Shown here in pieces: positions 23,527 through 30,092 of a DNA stretch of 64,000 nt (within the stretch, counting starts at the first letter, position 1; every line of letters begins with the position of its first letter). This stretch comes from Candidatus Cloacimonadales bacterium. GTDB lineage: Bacteria; Cloacimonadota; Cloacimonadia; Cloacimonadales; JAIOQZ01. The position numbers and the translations under genes were made by a program. A model generated the notes under the pieces. That model ran no database searches. It saw only the letters and a program-made list of their open reading frames with translations, and had not been told where the DNA came from. The DNA lies in contig OY762463.1 in NCBI GenBank assembly GCA_963665815.1, forward strand, positions 1,984,001 to 2,048,000, written 5' to 3'.

Positions 23527-23915
23527 TTAAGCAAGTTATAAATATTCGTACTGACCGAAAAGACCAGATGAAGAATATCACAAGTCATTTACGTGATTTC
23601 ATCCGAGAGAACGGTATTGAAGAAGGCAGATTGACTGTGTTTGTTCCACATACAACTGCTGCCGTGACGATAAACGAGAATGCTGACCCTACAGTTCAGT
23701 CTGACATGCTGTACTCTCTGGACAAGATTTCTCCGGACTATCCTGCATTCCGCCATATGGAAGGCAACTCCGATGCACATGTAAAAAGCTCATTGATTGG
23801 CTGTTCTCAGGATGTATTTGTGTTTGATGGAAGCCTGATGCTGGGAACCTGGCAGGGAGTATATTTCTGTGAGTTTGACGGACCGAGATCCAGAAAGTTC
23901 TATATTGTCGGATGA
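23523..23915 (+). CDS. yjbQ: YjbQ/UPF0047 family protein
   Basis: HTTAAVTINEN, H.EGNSDAHVK and LGTWQG...EFDGPR motifs. Confidence 0.9.
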   Translation: MIKQVINIRTDRKDQMKNITSHLRDFIRENGIEEGRLTVFVPHTTAAVTINENADPTVQSDMLYSLDKISPDYPAFRHMEGNSDAHVKSSLIGCSQDVFVFDGSLMLGTWQGVYFCEFDGPRSRKFYIVG

Positions 23916-23974
23916 TTTTGAGTAGTAATTATTGTTCATCTTCGCATTTACCTGCTGAAGGATTCCATGCAAAT

Positions 23975-24009
23975 CACCTTCGGAATGGTTGAAAACCTTC
24001 CGAATGGTG
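23975..24009. repeat. Bulged palindrome, copy 1 (others at 25647-25681 and 31025-31059)
   Basis: CACC-TTCGGAA-T-GGTT-GAA-AACC-TTCCGAA-T-GGTG. Confidence 0.7.
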
Positions 24010-24057
24010 TGACTGGTAATGCTGATAATATAAAATCGGAAACTTAATGCACACCAT

Positions 24058-24082
24058 GAGACACAAGATGTTGTGTCTCTAC
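24058..24082 (-). repeat. GTAG-type REP
   Basis: Reverse strand reads GTAGAGACACAACATCTTGTGTCTC. Confidence 0.7.
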
Positions 24083-24123
24083 AATTATTGGAAGACAATG
24101 TGACGTTAAAACGTCACTCCCAT

Positions 24124-24258
24124 GGGGGGACTGCTTCATCTGTACAAAATATAATTTTGAACTTTGATAAAGAAGGATAATAATCCCATGAACAATTTTC
24201 TTGACCATTTGCCGTTAATGAGCTCAATTTTACTATATTATGGAGTAAGGAGACAGGA
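24124..24258 (+). promoter_or_regulatory. Conserved Rhs-cassette leader (also 26264-26399 and, shorter, 28268-28351)
   Basis: Shared TTGACC...GCTCAATTT...ATGGAGTAAGGAG...GGA then TTG start before each cassette. Confidence 0.7.
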
Positions 24259-25205
24259 TTGTACGTAGGAAATAACGTAACGAATTTACAGGAAGACCAT
24301 TATTATCCACTGAGCAGGTTTGGAATGAGACTTGGAGGATTATCCTCTACCAATGGAGATAAATCCAATAAATTCATTTACAACGGAAAAGAATTTGAAG
24401 ATGAGAATAATGTACCTCCTATGGTCTTCGAACTGACGTTCTATAGACTTCGGAGTGGAGACTCTCGCCTGCGGCTACGAGCTCTTTTTTGGAGACTTTC
24501 GGGCTTTACCCTGCAAGCTCGTAGCTACCACTACGGAGTGCGTTATTACGACCCACAGCTTGGGCGCTGGCACGCTATAGACCCGGCTGAGGAATTCTTT
24601 AGCCCTTACAATTATTGTGCTAACAATCCTATTATGTTTGTTGACCCGGATGGGGCTATGTCAACTGCTGCTTTACCTTTAGCAGCTTTTGAGATCGGTT
24701 TAGGTTCAACTGCAGCAGCAGGGGCTGGCCTTATAGTGATTTTTGGTATTTCTTTTTATGTAACAGACTGTATTATGGATGAAATTCAAGAAAAGAATTT
24801 GCGGAAGCCCAAGCAGAAGAAAATAATAAAGGAGTTGCTTTTATTCATGCTTGTAAGTTAGAGGGACAATCCACTCCTCATGTTTCAATTGAAATTTGGG
24901 GACTGAATTCGGAGCTTTCGGTTGATGATTCCAAAAATACCTATGTACAAATTGTAAAAAACCACAACTTGGAGATAAGAAAGTTGACTATATTGGAACA
25001 ATTCCAGTTGTTGTTAACAATCCAGTAGCTCTATCTGAATATCAGTCAAGCACTCTATATCAATCAAGAGGACAATGGAATTCTGGAAATAATTGTCTAA
25101 CTTATGTTATGGAAGTTTATAAATGCAGGTGGTTCTAACTACAAAAGCAGAAAGATAACAAAAGATCTAAAAATGAATAACAAAAAAATGAATCCAACAT
25201 GGTAA
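24259..25205 (+). pseudogene. Mini Rhs-core toxin 1; papain-fold-like C-terminus broken by three frameshifts
   Basis: YNGKE...[12 protein letters not shown]...NNPIMFVDPDG core; continuation in other frames (PHVSIEI; NNCLTYVMEV; NAGG...PTW*). Confidence 0.75.
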
Positions 25206-25227
25206 AACAAGAGAGAAGGAGATAAAT

Positions 25228-25554
25228 ATGCCACCAACAAAGTGCTCAAAACATGGCAAAACCTTTGCAATTTCCTTGTGCAAGCATGTAGAACAAGCTT
25301 TAAATAAGGATATTCCTATTGACATTGTTCATGTATGCATTGATTTTTTTGAGGAATATATGTGTCTCTCGTGCTTTGAACTTTATAAAGATTGTAATAC
25401 ATTGGAAGATATTGAAAAAGTTGCCACAAAAGATTCTTGGAATGCCAAGTGTGTCGACTGTTTCAGAGAATATCTTGCCAGTCATAATATTATTCCTCTA
25501 AAACATTTTGTTAATACTTTTTTTGGTGAGGAATGTTCGTTTCTTACAGGCTAA
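25228..25554 (+). CDS. Putative immunity protein 1 (Cys-rich)
   Basis: AAGGAG RBS directly after the toxin end; CxxH, CxH and two CxxC motifs. Confidence 0.6.
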   Translation: MPPTKCSKHGKTFAISLCKHVEQALNKDIPIDIVHVCIDFFEEYMCLSCFELYKDCNTLEDIEKVATKDSWNAKCVDCFREYLASHNIIPLKHFVNTFFGEECSFLTG

Positions 25555-25572
25555 TCTATGATTTATATACAT

Positions 25573-25599
25573 CAAGCCAGAAACAAGTTTTCTGGCTTG
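25573..25599 (+). terminator. Shared cassette terminator (also 28201-28223 and 30951-30978)
   Basis: AAGCCAGAAAC-nn-GTTTTCTGGCTT hairpin found after each cassette. Confidence 0.75.
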
Positions 25600-25763
25600 T
25601 TCTGTTTGAACCTTGATTTTCATGATTGAAGTATTGCTCACCTGAACACCTTCCAAATGGTTAAAGACCTTTTGAATGGTGTGACTAACTGCTGTTTTTT
25701 GGTGAAATTAATACTGTGAAGTACCCCCTTCAACGAATAGGAATAGTACATCCTACGTTGTTT

Positions 25764-25786
25764 GTAGGGAACAAATATATTTGTTC
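25764..25786 (+). repeat. GTAG-type REP (homologue at 31171-31193)
   Basis: GTAGGGAACAAATATATTTGTTC. Confidence 0.65.
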
Positions 25787-25827
25787 AGAATTTTAAACCC
25801 TCTGTCTCGTAAACTCGACATCTCTAC

Positions 25828-26015
25828 CAGACTGTGTAAAAACGGGTTGTGATAGAAAACTAATCCTTATTTTTGTCGCAGATTTCGACTCCGCTCAATC
25901 AACTTAATCTGTTATAATCAATAGAGTTATAAGTTTCCTGAGTCCCGATAAAGTCGGAAAAGGGAATATGATGTGAACAAAAGAAACGACAATAATTACG
26001 TTTTTACACAGTCTG
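25828..26015. mobile_element. MITE family A, copy 1 (188 bp), nested inside a palindromic repeat
   Basis: Perfect 17-bp TIR CAGACTGTGTAAAAACG / CGTTTTTACACAGTCTG; similar to 35252-35454. Confidence 0.85.
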
Positions 26016-26100
26016 TCCGTAGATGTTTCTGTTAGAACACCTCCATAGATGCATTAGGGAGAACTTTGTCTGTACGAGCTTGTACAGTTCTGATATACGC

Positions 26101-26155
26101 GTAGAGACAAACGGCCGTTTGTCTCAGAATTAGACGTTGCATGCAACGTCTCTAC
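26101..26155. repeat. Inverted doublet of GTAG REPs (REPIN/BIME-like)
   Basis: GTAGAGACAAACGGCCGTTTGTCTC followed by GACGTTGCATGCAACGTCTCTAC; related single REP at 31307-31330. Confidence 0.75.
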
Positions 26156-26399
26156 AGAGACTAGAATCAGGATTTACCTGAGTAAATCGACTATGCCTAT
26201 TTCACATTGACATTCCAAGCCCCCCATTCGCAAGGACAGGTCCATTGCGAAGGGGGCTATATATGGGGGTACTGCTTTAGCTGTACAAAATATAATGTTG
26301 AACTTTTATAAAGAAGGATTGTAATCTCAAGAATAATTTTCTTGACCTTTTGCCACTAATGGGCTCAATTTAGCGATAAAATGGAGTAAGGAGGTAGGA

Positions 26400-27287
26400 T
26401 TGAACGTAGGAAATAACGTAACGAATTTACAGGAAGACCATTATTATCCACTGAGCAGGTTTGGAATGAGACTTGGAGGATTATCCTCTACCAATGGAGA
26501 TAAATCCAATAAATTCATTTACAACGGAAAAGAATTTGAAGATGAGAATAATGTACCTCCTATGGTTCTCGGATTCAAATCCTACGAACTTCGGAGTGGA
26601 GACTCTCGCCTGCGGCTACGAGCTCTTTTTTGGAGACTTTCGGGCTTTACCCTGCAAGCTCGTAGCTACCACTACGGAGTGCGTTATTACGACCCACAGC
26701 TTGGGCGTTGGCATTCCATAGATCCTGCTGATGAGTTCTTTAGCCCTTATGTGTATTGCCACAACGACCCAGTGAACTTTGTTGATCCGGATGGGGCGGA
26801 AAGAGAAAGTAAATACAATGTGAATGATTTCTCAGCACAAGACATAGCTGATCTACTCAAAAACAATGGATATGAGGAAACAAAGAAAAAATTTGGAGAA
26901 GTTACAAGTTATTCAATAGTTGCTTTATTGGTTGCAGTATGGAGGGAAACTCACAACAAACGTTATTCAGAATTTCTAACTTGTGATATAGAACCAGAAG
27001 AAAAACTCTATTCTCTTCAGAAACACAATACTACTGATGATGCAAGTAAGAAATCTGCTGATACAGGGAATGGTATGTGGAAAGCATATGCAATAATGTT
27101 TGTATCTGGAGTTGTAGGAGGAATATCTTATGGCTTGCAATGGGTTGGACTTATTACTACAGGAGGGAATGTTGCTGTTGATTCAAAATCAGCTGTGGAT
27201 TTAGCAAAGGATAATGATGACAAGCTGGAAGAAGCTGCAGATATTTATAATGAAGAAAGAGGATACTATGATGATGATGAAGATTAA
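26400..27287 (+). CDS. Mini Rhs-core toxin 2 (C-terminus of unknown type with a Gly-rich hydrophobic segment)
   Basis: Rhs core ending FVDPDG, then unique sequence. Confidence 0.78.
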
Positions 27288-28176
27288 TTTATTCGCAATT
27301 TGTTTTATATGCTTTTTATGTAATATATCTAGTTTGGGCTGTCAGGTGACTGATAAAGAAAAAAGATGTAAGGAGCTTGAAGCAAGATTTGATAGTGTTA
27401 ACACAATACATGATTACAATTATGTATTGGATAATGAAGCTGATATTGAATGGTTAGTAGAGAATTCAGATAATTTTCAAGTCAGAAACTTTTATGCTGT
27501 GAGACTTCTAGAAGCTAATTTCATAATGAAAAATTATAATAAATCGTTACAATTTGTAGAGATATTGTTAAATGATCTACCATTTGAAGAATTTGAACAA
27601 TATCAGCTTAAAACTAAGTTTATAATTGACTATAGACTGAACTCAGCTATCAATAACGAACTTTTGAATAAGTTGGAATTGAATAATATAACAACATTAG
27701 ACAATATAATTTTTGCATTACATATTAATAGGCTAATCAATTCAGATTTTAATCCCGTTAATTTCTTGGAAAAGTACAATATAGAGATTAATTATCCGCC
27801 ATATCAAGCAGTCTACATCTATCTATACTTAGCTAGTCGTGCAATTGAGACTAATGATTATTTAAGTGCAAAAGAAAATTTAGTTCTTGCAGAGAAAAAA
27901 ATTGAATCCATGGCTAATATTTCTGAAGCAAGCAGAAATGTTTATTTTGTTAAACTTATACTATGGAAAAGTATTGTTGCCTATAAGGAAAACAGAATTG
28001 AAGATGCTAAGCAATTTTATTCAAATGCAATAGAATTGAGCAAAACAATTTGCATGATAAAGACAAGTACTATTGATCACCTGCTTGATTTCTATACAAT
28101 TGTTGAAGTTAATAATGAATTTAAAGATATAATCAGAGAGCTTGATAAGTCATACAGGAAAGAACAGAAAAAGTAG
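27271..28176 (+). CDS. Putative immunity protein 2 (signal peptide, helical/TPR-like)
   Basis: Overlaps the toxin stop; GAGGA RBS; hydrophobic N-terminus ending SLGC. Confidence 0.6.
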
Positions 28177-28351
28177 TTCAGCTACTGTAAATAATACTAC
28201 GCCAGAAACATGTTTTCTGGCTTATTTTTCCGTGTCCTTTAGTGTATTCCATGTTTGAATCCTAATGGGATTGTAATCCCATGAACAATTTCCTTGACCA
28301 TTTGCCGCTAATGAGCTCAATTTTGCTACATTATGGAGTAAGGAGACAGGA

Positions 28352-29356
28352 TTGTATCTGGGAAACACAGCTTTAATAGTGCAAGAAGACCATTATTATC
28401 CACTGAGCAGCTTTGGAATGAGACTTGGTGGTATCTCCTCTGATACCGGGCAGGAAAACAAGTTCCTCTACAACGGAAAAGAATTTGAAGATGAGAATAA
28501 TGTACCTCCTATGGTCTTCGAACTGACGTTCTATAGACTTCGGAGTGGAGACTCTCGCCTGCGGCTACGAGCTCTTTTTTGGAGACTTTCGGGCTATGCC
28601 TTGCAAGATCGTAGCTACCACTACGGAGTGCGTTATTACGACCCACAGCTTGGTTCTGGGAGACTTTCGGGCTATGCCTTGCAAGCTCATTGCTGGATGG
28701 CAGTTGACCCGGCTGATGAGTTCTTTAGTCCTTATGTGTATTGCCATAACGACCCGGTTAATTTTGTTGATCCGGATGGCAGAATAGTACGAGTAAACCA
28801 AGATTTTGCCCAAACCAGAACATACAAACTTTATTCAAGTACTGAAGGAGGAAAAGCCCAATTAGCACAATTCCAAGCTGGAGGTAAATATGAACATCAT
28901 GTACTTGAAATTGGTTACAAAAGGAAAATGTGGTCTTCAGGTTCTCAAAGCTCAGGTACATATAATTCACAGGGAGTTTTTGTCAAAGCTGATGTCGGAG
29001 TTCCATTTGGTGAAAGAAGCATAGTGTTTAAAATTAATATTAATAAAGAAATGAACGAACGCACCGAACAGCGTTCAAAGTGTGATTATAGAGTGGCTTC
29101 AATGGTTGAAACAGTTAGCCATGAAGTCGACCACTCTATTGACGAAGCCAATGCAGGTTATAATCTACCTTTTAGAGAAGGTGAAAACAAAGTGTCAGAG
29201 TATAATTCTGTTCATAACAGAATGAATATTATTCTTGATGTTTTTATAATGTTGGGAACAACAGATTTCTATCCTGAACCAGATAAAGCAGCTTACGAAA
29301 TTGCAACCGATCACTTGAATCATAATGAGGATGTTTACAATGAAACAAAACCTTAA
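28352..29356 (+). CDS. Mini Rhs-core toxin 3 with HExxH metallopeptidase-like C-terminus
   Basis: Rhs core ending FVDPDG; VETVSHEVDH motif. Confidence 0.78.
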   Translation: MYLGNTALIVQEDHYYPLSSFGMRLGGISSDTGQENKFLYNGKEFEDENNVPPMVFELTFYRLRSGDSRLRLRALFWRLSGYALQDRSYHYGVRYYDPQLGSGRLSGYALQAHCWMAVDPADEFFSPYVYCHNDPVNFVDPDGRIVRVNQDFAQTRTYKLYSSTEGGKAQLAQFQAGGKYEHHVLEIGYKRKMWSSGSQSSGTYNSQGVFVKADVGVPFGERSIVFKININKEMNERTEQRSKCDYRVASMVETVSHEVDHSIDEANAGYNLPFREGENKVSEYNSVHNRMNIILDVFIMLGTTDFYPEPDKAAYEIATDHLNHNEDVYNETKP

Positions 29357-30092
29357 AATTTTCTTTTTTGCCTGTATTTTGTGTAGCTTTTTACCATTAT
29401 GCTGTCAAGAGTTCTTAGTGTACAACTTTGATTCAGATATAAGTGATTGCTATTATTTTGAGAGATGGAAACTCCTACATAACATTAGTGATGATGACGC
29501 TGATATTAAACATAAGAAGATAAATGAAGTTAACTCAAAGTACTTAGGATATGGAAAAGAATTCTACTCTAAGTTGACATCTGGGAGAAAAGGTGTTTCA
29601 AAAACAATATTCGAAACTAAGGATGAAAAAATATCCGGAAAAAACTATGTTCGATACTCAAAAGCATGGTCTTGCTCTGACAGTCAGATTCCTTTTACAT
29701 TTGAAGGAAACAGAATTAGGTGTAGAATAGGAAAATCACCTTTCTTTAGTAGACCTTTTTTTGTTTCAAAAGATTTTGAGAGTTTGGTTTCTTACTTTTT
29801 TTCGACAACTCATGATTCTCTTTTAATTTTTAAAGACAATGAATGGATTACATTGTTCTCAAAAAGCGAAACTAATTCTTGCTTAGAAAATATATTTGGG
29901 AAAATTTATCATTTGGGCTCGTATTCGAAAAAGAATTTTTTTGATTATGTTTACTCAGATATTGATGAGTTTCTAGTTATCTCAAACTTAAATGGTTATT
30001 TGACATTTAGTCTTGTATGGTTTAATGAAAGGTGGGAGATTCTGAGAATTGAGTCTTCAGATAATCAATTCGGTGTCTTGAGAATCCCATAA
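29340..30092 (+). CDS. Putative immunity protein 3 (signal peptide)
   Basis: Overlaps the toxin stop; GAGGA RBS; MKQNLKIFFFACILCSFLPLCC leader. Confidence 0.6.
   Translation: MKQNLKIFFFACILCSFLPLCCQEFLVYNFDSDISDCYYFERWKLLHNISDDDADIKHKKINEVNSKYLGYGKEFYSKLTSGRKGVSKTIFETKDEKISGKNYVRYSKAWSCSDSQIPFTFEGNRIRCRIGKSPFFSRPFFVSKDFESLVSYFFSTTHDSLLIFKDNEWITLFSKSETNSCLENIFGKIYHLGSYSKKNFFDYVYSDIDEFLVISNLNGYLTFSLVWFNERWEILRIESSDNQFGVLRIP

Follow-up and report, generated by a model that had tools for sequence, protein, structure and literature searches.

A small modular palindromic repeat in the core tips of Rhs toxin cassettes, restricted to one genus of Cloacimonadota

A structured 114-nt segment interrupts the core of three Rhs cassettes in the 64,000-nt stretch of DNA analysed here (the window). 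We consider it probable that this segment belongs to a family of small, modular palindromic repeats that is genus-restricted and previously undescribed, and that spreads among Rhs cassette tips as a selfish element and is read through. The mode of spread, the translation of the insert and its selfish rather than useful nature are the parts of this explanation that we infer.

The first-pass annotation had placed the segment, in frame, in all three Rhs cores of the window, and both coordinates and sequences were confirmed (Table 1). The conserved unit begins about 6 nt before the start first given (24412), at AATAAT (24406). The hosts are indeed Rhs cores, but all three are orphan cassettes and none is a full-length rhs gene. 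Likewise, the description of three hairpins per insert holds for cassettes 1 and 2, whereas cassette 3 contains four modules, the additional one being another copy of C. This solo C (28654-28689) is a direct repeat of the C module at 28582-28610 and lies in frame within the core, with QLG before it and W after it (QLG-SGRLSGYALQAHC-WMAVDP). Modules B and C of cassette 2 show no differences from those of cassette 1, and module C of cassette 3 is mildly degraded (GGGC/GCCT with a G-T, and ATC in place of CTC). The leader preceding cassette 1 has a copy at 26263-26399 and a more diverged copy 5' of 28352.

Table 1. Insert segments, modules and host reading frames in the window
Feature	Position	Strand	Details
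Insert segment, cassette 1	24412-24525	+	114 nt, in frame in ORF 24259-24861
Insert segment, cassette 2	26553-26666	+	114 nt, in frame in ORF 26400-27287
Insert segment, cassette 3	28502-28615	+	114 nt, in frame in ORF 28352-29356
Composite A-B-C element, orphan cassette 1	24406..24525	+	
A domain, cassette 1	about 24416-24455	+	P1 CTCC/GGAG, P2 GTCT/AGAC, P3 GAAC/GTTC
B domain, cassette 1	24458-24484	+	
C domain, cassette 1	24492-24520	+	
Composite A-B-C element, orphan cassette 2	26547..26666	+	
Hairpin A, second allele, cassette 2	26565-26589	+	GTTC..GGAT/ATCC..GAAC
Composite A-B-C element, orphan cassette 3	28496..28615	+	
Extra solo module C, cassette 3	28654..28689	+	36 nt
Orphan Rhs cassette 1 ORF	24259..24861	+	Starts with TTG; comprises the last Rhs repeat, an interrupted core and a short C-terminal region
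Orphan Rhs cassette 2 ORF	26400..27287	+	
Orphan Rhs cassette 3 ORF	28352..29356	+	HEVDH motif in C-terminal region
Conserved cassette leader	24122..24258	+	TTGACC..., AAGGAG, then TTG start

The three cassette ORFs match the TIGR03696 (Rhs_assc_core) profile with 61.1, 62.8 and 41.9 bits (cut-off 32.5), in each case only over profile positions 29-75 or 38-75, downstream of the insert. Since the match begins only at position 29 or 38, the insert interrupts this domain. Insert-free Rhs cores have 3 residues at the same place (...DDYN-LNW-YHYG), which agrees with the figure of about 3 first proposed for a typical core. A Pfam search of the three cassette proteins and three downstream ORFs gave no match. 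The AlphaFold2 model of cassette 2, built from 23 sequences, was too poor for placing the insert (mean pLDDT 53.5, pTM 0.25); confidence was low over the insert, but the model is poor as a whole.

Each module is an interrupted hairpin made of an outer helix, TC opposite TRY, an inner helix and a loop. In cassette 1, hairpin A reads GTCT-TC-GAAC-tgac-GTTC-TAT-AGAC (24424-24448), while B is CTC-TC-GCC-tgc-GGC-TAC-GAG and C is CTT-TC-GGG-cttta-CCC-TGC-AAG; a further CTCC/GGAG helix encloses module A, and GAG/CTC encloses modules B and C. The common design was borne out by RNAfold, which for the 79-nt A-B part returned exactly the proposed helices together with the outer CTCC/GGAG helix, at an unexceptional stability (z of -1.1 to -1.3; sense-strand values overall range from -0.7 to -1.8). 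Perfect matches to the design with at least 8 stem pairs numbered 28 across the genome's two strands, compared with 1-2 per strand in three shuffled genomes, and the hairpin design is thus beyond chance. No Rfam covariance model matched the region 23900-29500 of the window at E values up to 1.

The swap of hairpin A between cassettes was also as first described. In cassette 2 it reads GTTC-TC-GGAT-tcaa-ATCC-TAC-GAAC (26565-26589), differing from cassette 1 at 11 of 25 positions, and 8 of these substitutions make up 4 compensatory pairs; the identical flanks, claimed to exceed 100 nt on each side, extend over 161 nt upstream and 118 nt downstream. Covariation persisted in a larger alignment, where 92% of the cells are paired (24–52% in slid controls) and 11 of 20 pairs change on both sides, a value reached by 0 of 500 shuffles; as the copies are related by duplication, the counts of copies and covarying cells overstate independent events, and roughly 5-6 independent stem changes are represented. 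Only 2 of 439 cells are G-U and no pair shows one-sided variation, which fits a hairpin at the DNA level. The unpaired stretches are near-invariant while the helices covary, and the TC/TRY asymmetry is kept in nearly all copies. The peptide, on the other hand, changes freely (it is variable between copies in hairpin A), and some copies are out of frame or non-coding. Together these observations support the first-pass view that the constraint acts on nucleic-acid pairing and not on the peptide.

The 3.96-Mb genome contains 24 A-B composites, of which 23 are in Rhs cassette arrays, all in sense orientation, and one lies outside any Rhs locus; the hairpins thus show strong enrichment in Rhs cassettes. 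The B/C pattern occurs 24 times, versus 0 for a reversed control, and B units at orthologous places number 5 versus 2. Architectures comprise A-B, A-B-C, A-A'-B, A-x-B, solo B, solo C and A-Bx5, distributed over at least 7 distinct sites within about 200 bp of two Rhs tip families; one copy neighbours a fragment of an unrelated gene, and another lies in intergenic DNA that is not part of an Rhs locus. The element sits just 5' of the variable toxin portion; eight silent cassettes have it right against the LDG boundary. The reading frame is open through the insert in 8 cassettes; a further 8 composites lie, with stops, upstream of CT ORFs and 4 lie between cassettes. Of the possible frames, that of the cores is most frequently open (17/22 units), and peptide and frame differ by site (VPPMV... 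versus EGVSYGSR...). One copy with a 3-nt loop allele is frameshifted, several are decayed, and two C copies have evidently mediated a deletion. Both full-length rhs genes of the genome are without the element. Longer, full-length proteins carrying the insert did not turn up when searched for, a finding of little weight, and L014, suggested as a carrier by match length, proved on inspection to be without it. Short-read contigs break at the repeats, and joints in such contigs, considered as excision products, are instead paralogous forms present elsewhere, e.g., the uninterrupted main-gene tip.

The family is restricted to one genus of Cloacimonadota. A covariance-model search detected it in 2 of 151 genomes of the order, namely its own genome and that of one sister species (8 A-B composites), the other 149 being without it. 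A pattern search matched 3 of 203 genomes, the third match not being a hairpin, with none in the 201 others, and among 5.8 billion proteins only those of the own and sister genomes bear the insert. In metagenomes, 111 stretches fitted the junction pattern, and the 80 loci scanned gave a single weak match of 27 bits; we attribute these pattern matches to chance. Moreover, 17/17 Rhs tips of the sister genus are uninterrupted, in equally large arrays, and 16/16 other Rhs-core proteins have no insert. The insert is dispensable, given its absence from the main genes, the sister-genus tips and these other proteins.

Between cassettes, the element is 0.89 identical, compared with 0.74 and 0.76 for its coding flanks, and 0.96 once the core of hairpin A is left out; in 29 of 36 pairs its identity is above that of both flanks, and between the two species, too, it is better conserved than its coding surroundings. 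The alleles of hairpin A do not track flank similarity, and the homology breakpoints between cassettes 1 and 2 fall in the tip and not at the hairpins. Instead of being simply inserted, the element takes the place of about 13 nt at the main site, and neither a clean target duplication nor a consistent terminal inverted repeat was found at element sites. Two solo modules have YTGG on both sides; a general 'TGG' target preference was rejected with only 4 of 7 right junctions fitting, as was an outer helix P0 or terminal inverted repeat (AATAAG/CTTATT), which fits one site only.

No mobilising enzyme for the element was found in the genome. Of two Y1_Tnp genes, the RAYT-like one (genome positions 2133692-2134183) is flanked by a different repeat family, and the model search found no element copy near the second. 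Four integrase genes (PF00589) are present, one of which, a tyrosine recombinase gene, is located 1.5 kb from an array end; no HUH enzyme is encoded near the Rhs arrays. Co-occurrence with a tyrosine recombinase or a HUH/RAYT nuclease, suggested at first as a check, was thus not seen, none being consistently adjacent.

The family lives almost solely in the core tip, the constant 5' part of Rhs toxin cassettes, and we propose that it spreads between cassettes at a small number of preferred sites. The likely routes are template switching or short-patch gene conversion between tips that are paralogous, along with occasional true insertion and tandem slippage. Such spread would keep the copies more alike than their hosts. 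Translatable hosts would retain only stop-free copies that add a multiple of three bases, and the surviving in-frame copies would be read through as an extra loop of 25-38 residues at the turn before YHYG. Almost exclusive occurrence in a single gene class, fixed sense orientation and near-invariant unpaired stretches exceed what is expected of a selfish element with random targets, and would also fit a function.

We weighed a functional, cis-acting role for the modules as a signal of the cassette system, which we regard as unlikely. As DNA, such a signal could be a folded single strand or cruciform by which gene conversion and the exchange of cassettes are provoked or guided at the core tip; as RNA, it could tune expression of the independently started orphan genes, e.g., with the CCTCC/GGAGG helix as an anti-SD/SD mimic. 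The narrower proposal that the folded DNA modules are a homing or recombination signal, inserting or provoking gene conversion at one fixed place of the core tip, seems to us quite unlikely. A signal would account for the sense-oriented Rhs-array composites, the constancy of unpaired stretches beside covarying helices, conservation above the coding flanks, between the two species too, the location next to the toxin part and the LDG boundary, the deletion between C copies and the recombinase gene near an array end. It would leave unexplained why both full-length rhs genes, the expected recipients of exchange, and all sister-genus tips, despite equally large arrays, are without the element. Neither the sites nor the module number nor the reading frame is constant, several of the copies have decayed, only one of the four integrase genes and no HUH enzyme is near an array, and the breakpoints between cassettes 1 and 2 lie outside the hairpins; the near absence of G-U pairs is also unlike most RNA structures. 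On these grounds a dedicated recombination site or a regulatory RNA, two of the three options of the first-pass annotation, is weakened and not upheld as stated. The third, a gene-targeting REP-like element, fits best.

Very unlikely, in our judgement, is an element with no mobility of its own: a single ancestral insertion or de novo quasi-palindrome, passively duplicated and homogenised by gene conversion, whose compensatory changes arose mechanically via intrastrand template switching. Most copies do have site and flanks in common, the replacement-type junction at the main site fits conversion, every change is Watson-Crick to Watson-Crick without one-sided intermediates, and hairpin alleles are reshuffled relative to the flanks. 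Against passive copying stand the number of distinct sites in two diverged tip families, the copies beside an unrelated gene fragment and in intergenic DNA, and the existence of solo B and solo C modules; moreover, quasi-palindrome correction should erase the TC/TRY asymmetry, yet it is kept. A role as a protein feature, with the insert selected as a linker or loop in the Rhs core, is suggested by the open in-frame cassettes and the preferred open frame, but it is extremely improbable and largely refuted by covariation and the many non-coding copies, the peptide being unconserved, the second site read in another frame and all other Rhs cores examined being without the insert.

In-frame palindromic repeats are known mainly from Rickettsia. 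What the present family contributes is a clear three-helix design of the modules, in which helices covary and unpaired bases are fixed, a near-total confinement to a single class of genes (the constant tips of cassettes for Rhs polymorphic toxins) and a conservation between cassettes above that of the surrounding coding sequence. The family offers a compact natural system for asking how repeats spread, by conversion, template switching or an unknown enzyme, and whether hairpins in a recombination-prone constant region alter the rate of toxin-cassette exchange. If merely selfish, the element is a tidy new example and no new principle; if it were a homing or recombination signal, it would drive exchange and concerted evolution of toxin cassettes, a form of cassette shuffling that is neither plain homologous recombination nor of the integron attC kind.

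REP/REPIN sequences are short imperfect hairpins, extragenic and often in inverted doublets, with GTAG at the 5' foot and a flanking cognate RAYT. The present modules are likewise short imperfect hairpins, in a genome that encodes a RAYT-like Y1 protein. On the minus strand a GYAG tetranucleotide (GTAG or GCAG) is present at the foot of the inner helix, extending across the internal loop instead of standing outside the stem. Unlike REPs, they are often intragenic and arranged head to tail on one strand without inverted doublets, and no Y1 gene is flanked by them. MITEs are marked by terminal inverted repeats and a target-site duplication; the present elements show no consistent terminal inverted repeats, have YTGG on either side of the solo modules and replace sequence at the main site. 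Integron attC sites have RYYYAAC / GTTRRRY core sites and an adjacent IntI; this identity was rejected, with the core sites absent by eye and only 1 of 4 PF00589 genes within 1.5 kb of an array end. Kink-turns, hammerheads, type III antitoxin repeats and translational bypass were likewise set aside by eye, since the covarying Watson-Crick pairs, the lack of core motifs or the gene context speak against them; a CTGATGA in one variant had prompted the hammerhead idea.

Pneumococcal BOX elements are named by module as boxA-boxBn-boxC. The likeness is an analogy of build only: both are modular, with a variable number of middle modules, extensive secondary structure and a narrow taxonomic range, whereas BOX elements, judged in the available text to be parasitic with slow transposition, are dispersed in intergenic DNA genome-wide and the present composites are nearly all in Rhs arrays, many inside ORFs (PMC3049150). 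Rickettsia palindromic elements (RPE), as described in the text available, are about 150 bp long, occur in many unrelated genes and have a conserved peptide per family (PMC10969869). Like RPE, the element is multi-copy, hairpin-forming, non-autonomous and in frame in coding genes without a known transposase; RPE are read through, and the present insert probably is too (PMC10969869). In contrast to RPE, its modules are 25-45 nt long and combinable, it encodes no conserved peptide and, compared by description, its hosts are essentially one gene class, the Rhs cassette tips (PMC10969869).

A literature search on structured or palindromic inserts in Rhs genes, aimed at Rhs and not at Cloacimonadota repeats, found nothing relevant. 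The closest setting is that of orphan rhs-CT/immunity cassettes, for which recombination with the main rhs gene is described (Koskiniemi 2014, PMC3967940): as there, orphan core-tip, toxin and immunity arrays lie downstream of a main gene and the constant region is common to main gene and orphan modules. Internal promoters in rhs have also been described (PMC7043789). The available text of both papers mentions no structured insert in the constant region, and the orphans studied here differ further in carrying a leader of their own together with an SD-like site and a start at TTG (PMC3967940, PMC7043789).

Each of the three Rhs cassettes of the window, which belongs to a single-contig genome of 3.96 Mb (36% G+C), combines a final Rhs repeat and the Rhs-associated core with its own C-terminal region and with an ORF of unassigned family downstream; the best related locus, L013, comes from a Cloacimonadales genome. 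With only ~106-107 open codons upstream of each tip, they are orphan cassettes, a kind whose recombination with the main rhs gene has been described (PMC3967940), as have promoters internal to rhs (PMC7043789). All three share a leader, whose conserved motifs suggest that the orphans may be expressed on their own rather than being silent fragments. Orphan cassettes of this genome and of the sister species all begin with this leader, the translated artefact of which reads 'PFATNELNLAIIWSKE'. The TIGR03696 match is split at about profile position 28/29 by the 114-nt hairpin segment, exactly where the first-pass annotation had placed it in the three cassettes. Tips without the insert have three residues here (DDYN-LNW-YHYG in a full-length gene), a similar spacing is found in 16/16 Rhs-core proteins from other organisms, and at this main site the element replaces ~13 nt of the uninterrupted form.

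The segment is a repeat family rather than a feature of three genes. BLAST of the genome returned 23 merged places, the covariance model of the element (R1) 24 strong composites of modules A and B, and the B/C pattern 24 occurrences against none for its reversed control. Eleven composites lie in YHYG-family tips, where eight cassettes remain open through the insert to the toxin part, one composite is truncated, another has lost the frame through the 3-nt loop of its hairpin A allele, and one cassette carries a second composite at another site and in another reading frame. Eight composites occupy a second tip family upstream of C-terminal ORFs, with most of the tip replaced and stops present; four are inter-cassette, adjoining a fragment of an unrelated gene; and the last, in a non-Rhs intergenic region, includes five tandem B-like units. 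Hairpins scattered without Rhs enrichment, which the earlier annotation had named as the outcome contrary to its proposal, were not what we found: 23 of the 24 composites are array-associated, all 23 in the direction of the cassettes. The non-Rhs copy borders another repeat of ~178 nt (GGYACCCCCGGCGCGATTAGC...), tandemly multiplied in the sister species.

Coordinates of the cassettes, dispersed modules and neighbouring features
Feature	Position	Remarks
Cassette ORFs	window 24259-24861, 26400-27287, 28352-29356	Rhs core (TIGR03696), own C-terminal region each
Cassette leader	window 24122-24258, 26263-26399, ~28262-28351	TTGACC, AAGGAG, TTG start
Non-Rhs copy	genome 3455700-3456210; L104 in sister species	B-like units of 30 nt, 5 vs 2
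Solo module C	window 28654-28689	in cassette 3
Solo module B copies	genome 335242, 337943, 2082373, 2395350	
Membrane-protein gene fragments	genome 2780-3040, 1057870-1058010, 2110560-2110700, ~3358100-3358280	
Y1-flanking palindromic repeat (CACCTTCGGAATGG.../CCATTCGCAAGG...)	window 23975-24014, 25647-25686, ~26219-26258	

Beside Rhs cassettes elsewhere in the genome, the opposite strand carries pieces of a membrane-protein gene's 3' end, which directly adjoin the hairpin element in four places; the gene is intact at genome 2104002-2104445 (end ...RPDINITGVIGKTLILEFKG...). A tandemly repeated stretch of ~190 nt (genome 1058012-1058851) directly follows the truncated cassette at 1057794.

Module content varies. 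The two C copies of cassette 3 flank a 13-residue stretch; two cassettes (genome 1054828-1055001 and 2107952-2108059) lack it, with the C module fused directly to CWMAVDP, the form that would be expected from deletion between two C copies. The C-terminal region of L121, a longer orphan fragment of the sister species (G001:C8:104063-104142) bearing an A-B unit in which hairpin A is decayed and has an in-frame TAA, matches that of the cassette at genome 2106467, which holds A-B-C in frame, so that module content differs despite a similar-looking toxin-coding start.

To describe the fold, 22 A-B units were aligned (17 from this genome, five from the sister species). Their left end is AATAAKGTR, followed by domain A in the order P1, TATG, P2, TC, P3 with its loop, the 3' strand of P3, TAY, the 3' strand of P2, TTC and the 3' strand of P1. 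Helix P1 is CTCC/GGAG, with longer versions (GTCTC/GAGAC, GTTTCC/GGAAAC or ATCTCC/GGAGAT) in some copies; domain B reads GAG-A-CTC-TC-inner helix-TRC-GAG-CTC, and module C is its homologue. For the 79-nt A-B part, RNAfold gave the proposed fold as both minimum-energy and centroid structure. Pairing was found in 92% of 439 cells, only two of them G-U, as compared to 24–52% in slid controls. Constraint at the nucleic-acid level, as the first-pass annotation had proposed, is borne out by both-sided change in 11/20 pairs, one-sided variation in none, and 0/500 shuffles attaining the observed values; because the copies are related, the independent stem changes are counted as ~5-6, not 53. Fold stability is unexceptional (z -0.7 to -1.3 for sense RNA, -1.8 for sense DNA), and z is -3.3 for antisense RNA over the full 127 nt. 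Constraint acts on pairing and the encoded peptide is a by-product; a protein-level role of the insert is nearly excluded. P1 pairs an anti-Shine-Dalgarno-like CCTCCT (window 24415-24421) with an SD-like GGAG(G)TGA (24452-24459), and likewise in other copies.

The element is restricted to one genus. The covariance model, under stricter filters beyond 40 genomes, found it in 2/151 genomes of the order, namely the present genome and the single congener (eight matches); BLAST recovered the same two among 41, and a pattern search gave 3/203, the third match not being a hairpin. Among 5.8 billion proteins, insert-bearing ones number six from this genome and one from a sister-like genome, and of 111 metagenome stretches with the A-B junction pattern, 80 were scanned and one matched the model, at 27 bits. 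The element is also dispensable for Rhs arrays: the sister genus has large arrays, yet 17/17 full tip matches are uninterrupted (14, one and two in G006, G005 and G003). Four tips are uninterrupted and 10 split in this genome, two and two in the congener. Both full-length rhs genes (tips at genome 2111602 and 2085024, with 1112 and 2936 open codons upstream) are insert-free, a comparison of two genes with ~26 orphans that carries no statistical weight.

Across nine YHYG-family cassettes (36 pairs), mean identity in the A-B element is 0.89, or 0.96 without the 25-nt hairpin A core, against 0.74 and 0.76 in coding flanks of ~110 and ~128 nt; the element exceeds both flanks in 29/36 pairs. High identity starts at most 15 nt upstream and stops ~5 nt downstream. 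Hairpin A alleles do not follow flank similarity: cassettes 1 and 2 agree at 111/111 upstream bases and differ in allele, that of cassette 2 being identical to the one at genome 2110380, and cassette 1 shares 78/79 element bases with the copy at genome 3361483, their flanks being 68% alike. The hairpin swap first described is thus one family allele exchanged for another. The element is young or homogenised. Taken together with the ~13-nt replacement, these data suit a recent spread, at one site, into cassettes that had already diverged; it would proceed by short-patch conversion or else a site-specific process. Strong constraint on the nucleotides would suit the data too.

A role in cis, in recombination or as RNA, is a weakened and rather unlikely alternative. 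One of four tyrosine recombinase genes lies 1.5 kb from an array end, and R1 has no match near either of the two Y1_Tnp genes; the check for co-occurrence with such enzymes suggested earlier gave no consistent adjacency. On both sides of the RAYT-like member of this pair, at genome 2133692-2134183, lie copies of a different repeat family (CACCATTCGCAAGG...), also present in the window. Further short palindromes lie in inter-cassette spacers (window ~24056-24080, 24100-24117, 26104-26125, 26133-26151). That a single ancestral insert was copied by passive conversion is still less probable because the element occupies many sites.

We found nothing relevant in the literature on structured inserts in rhs genes, and we favour, with some reserve, reading the element as a modular palindromic repeat family not described before. 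Its way of working would resemble that of Rickettsia palindromic elements (PMC10969869), pneumococcal BOX repeats (PMC3049150) and RAYT-linked REP hairpins, from which it differs by specialisation to Rhs cassette tips.
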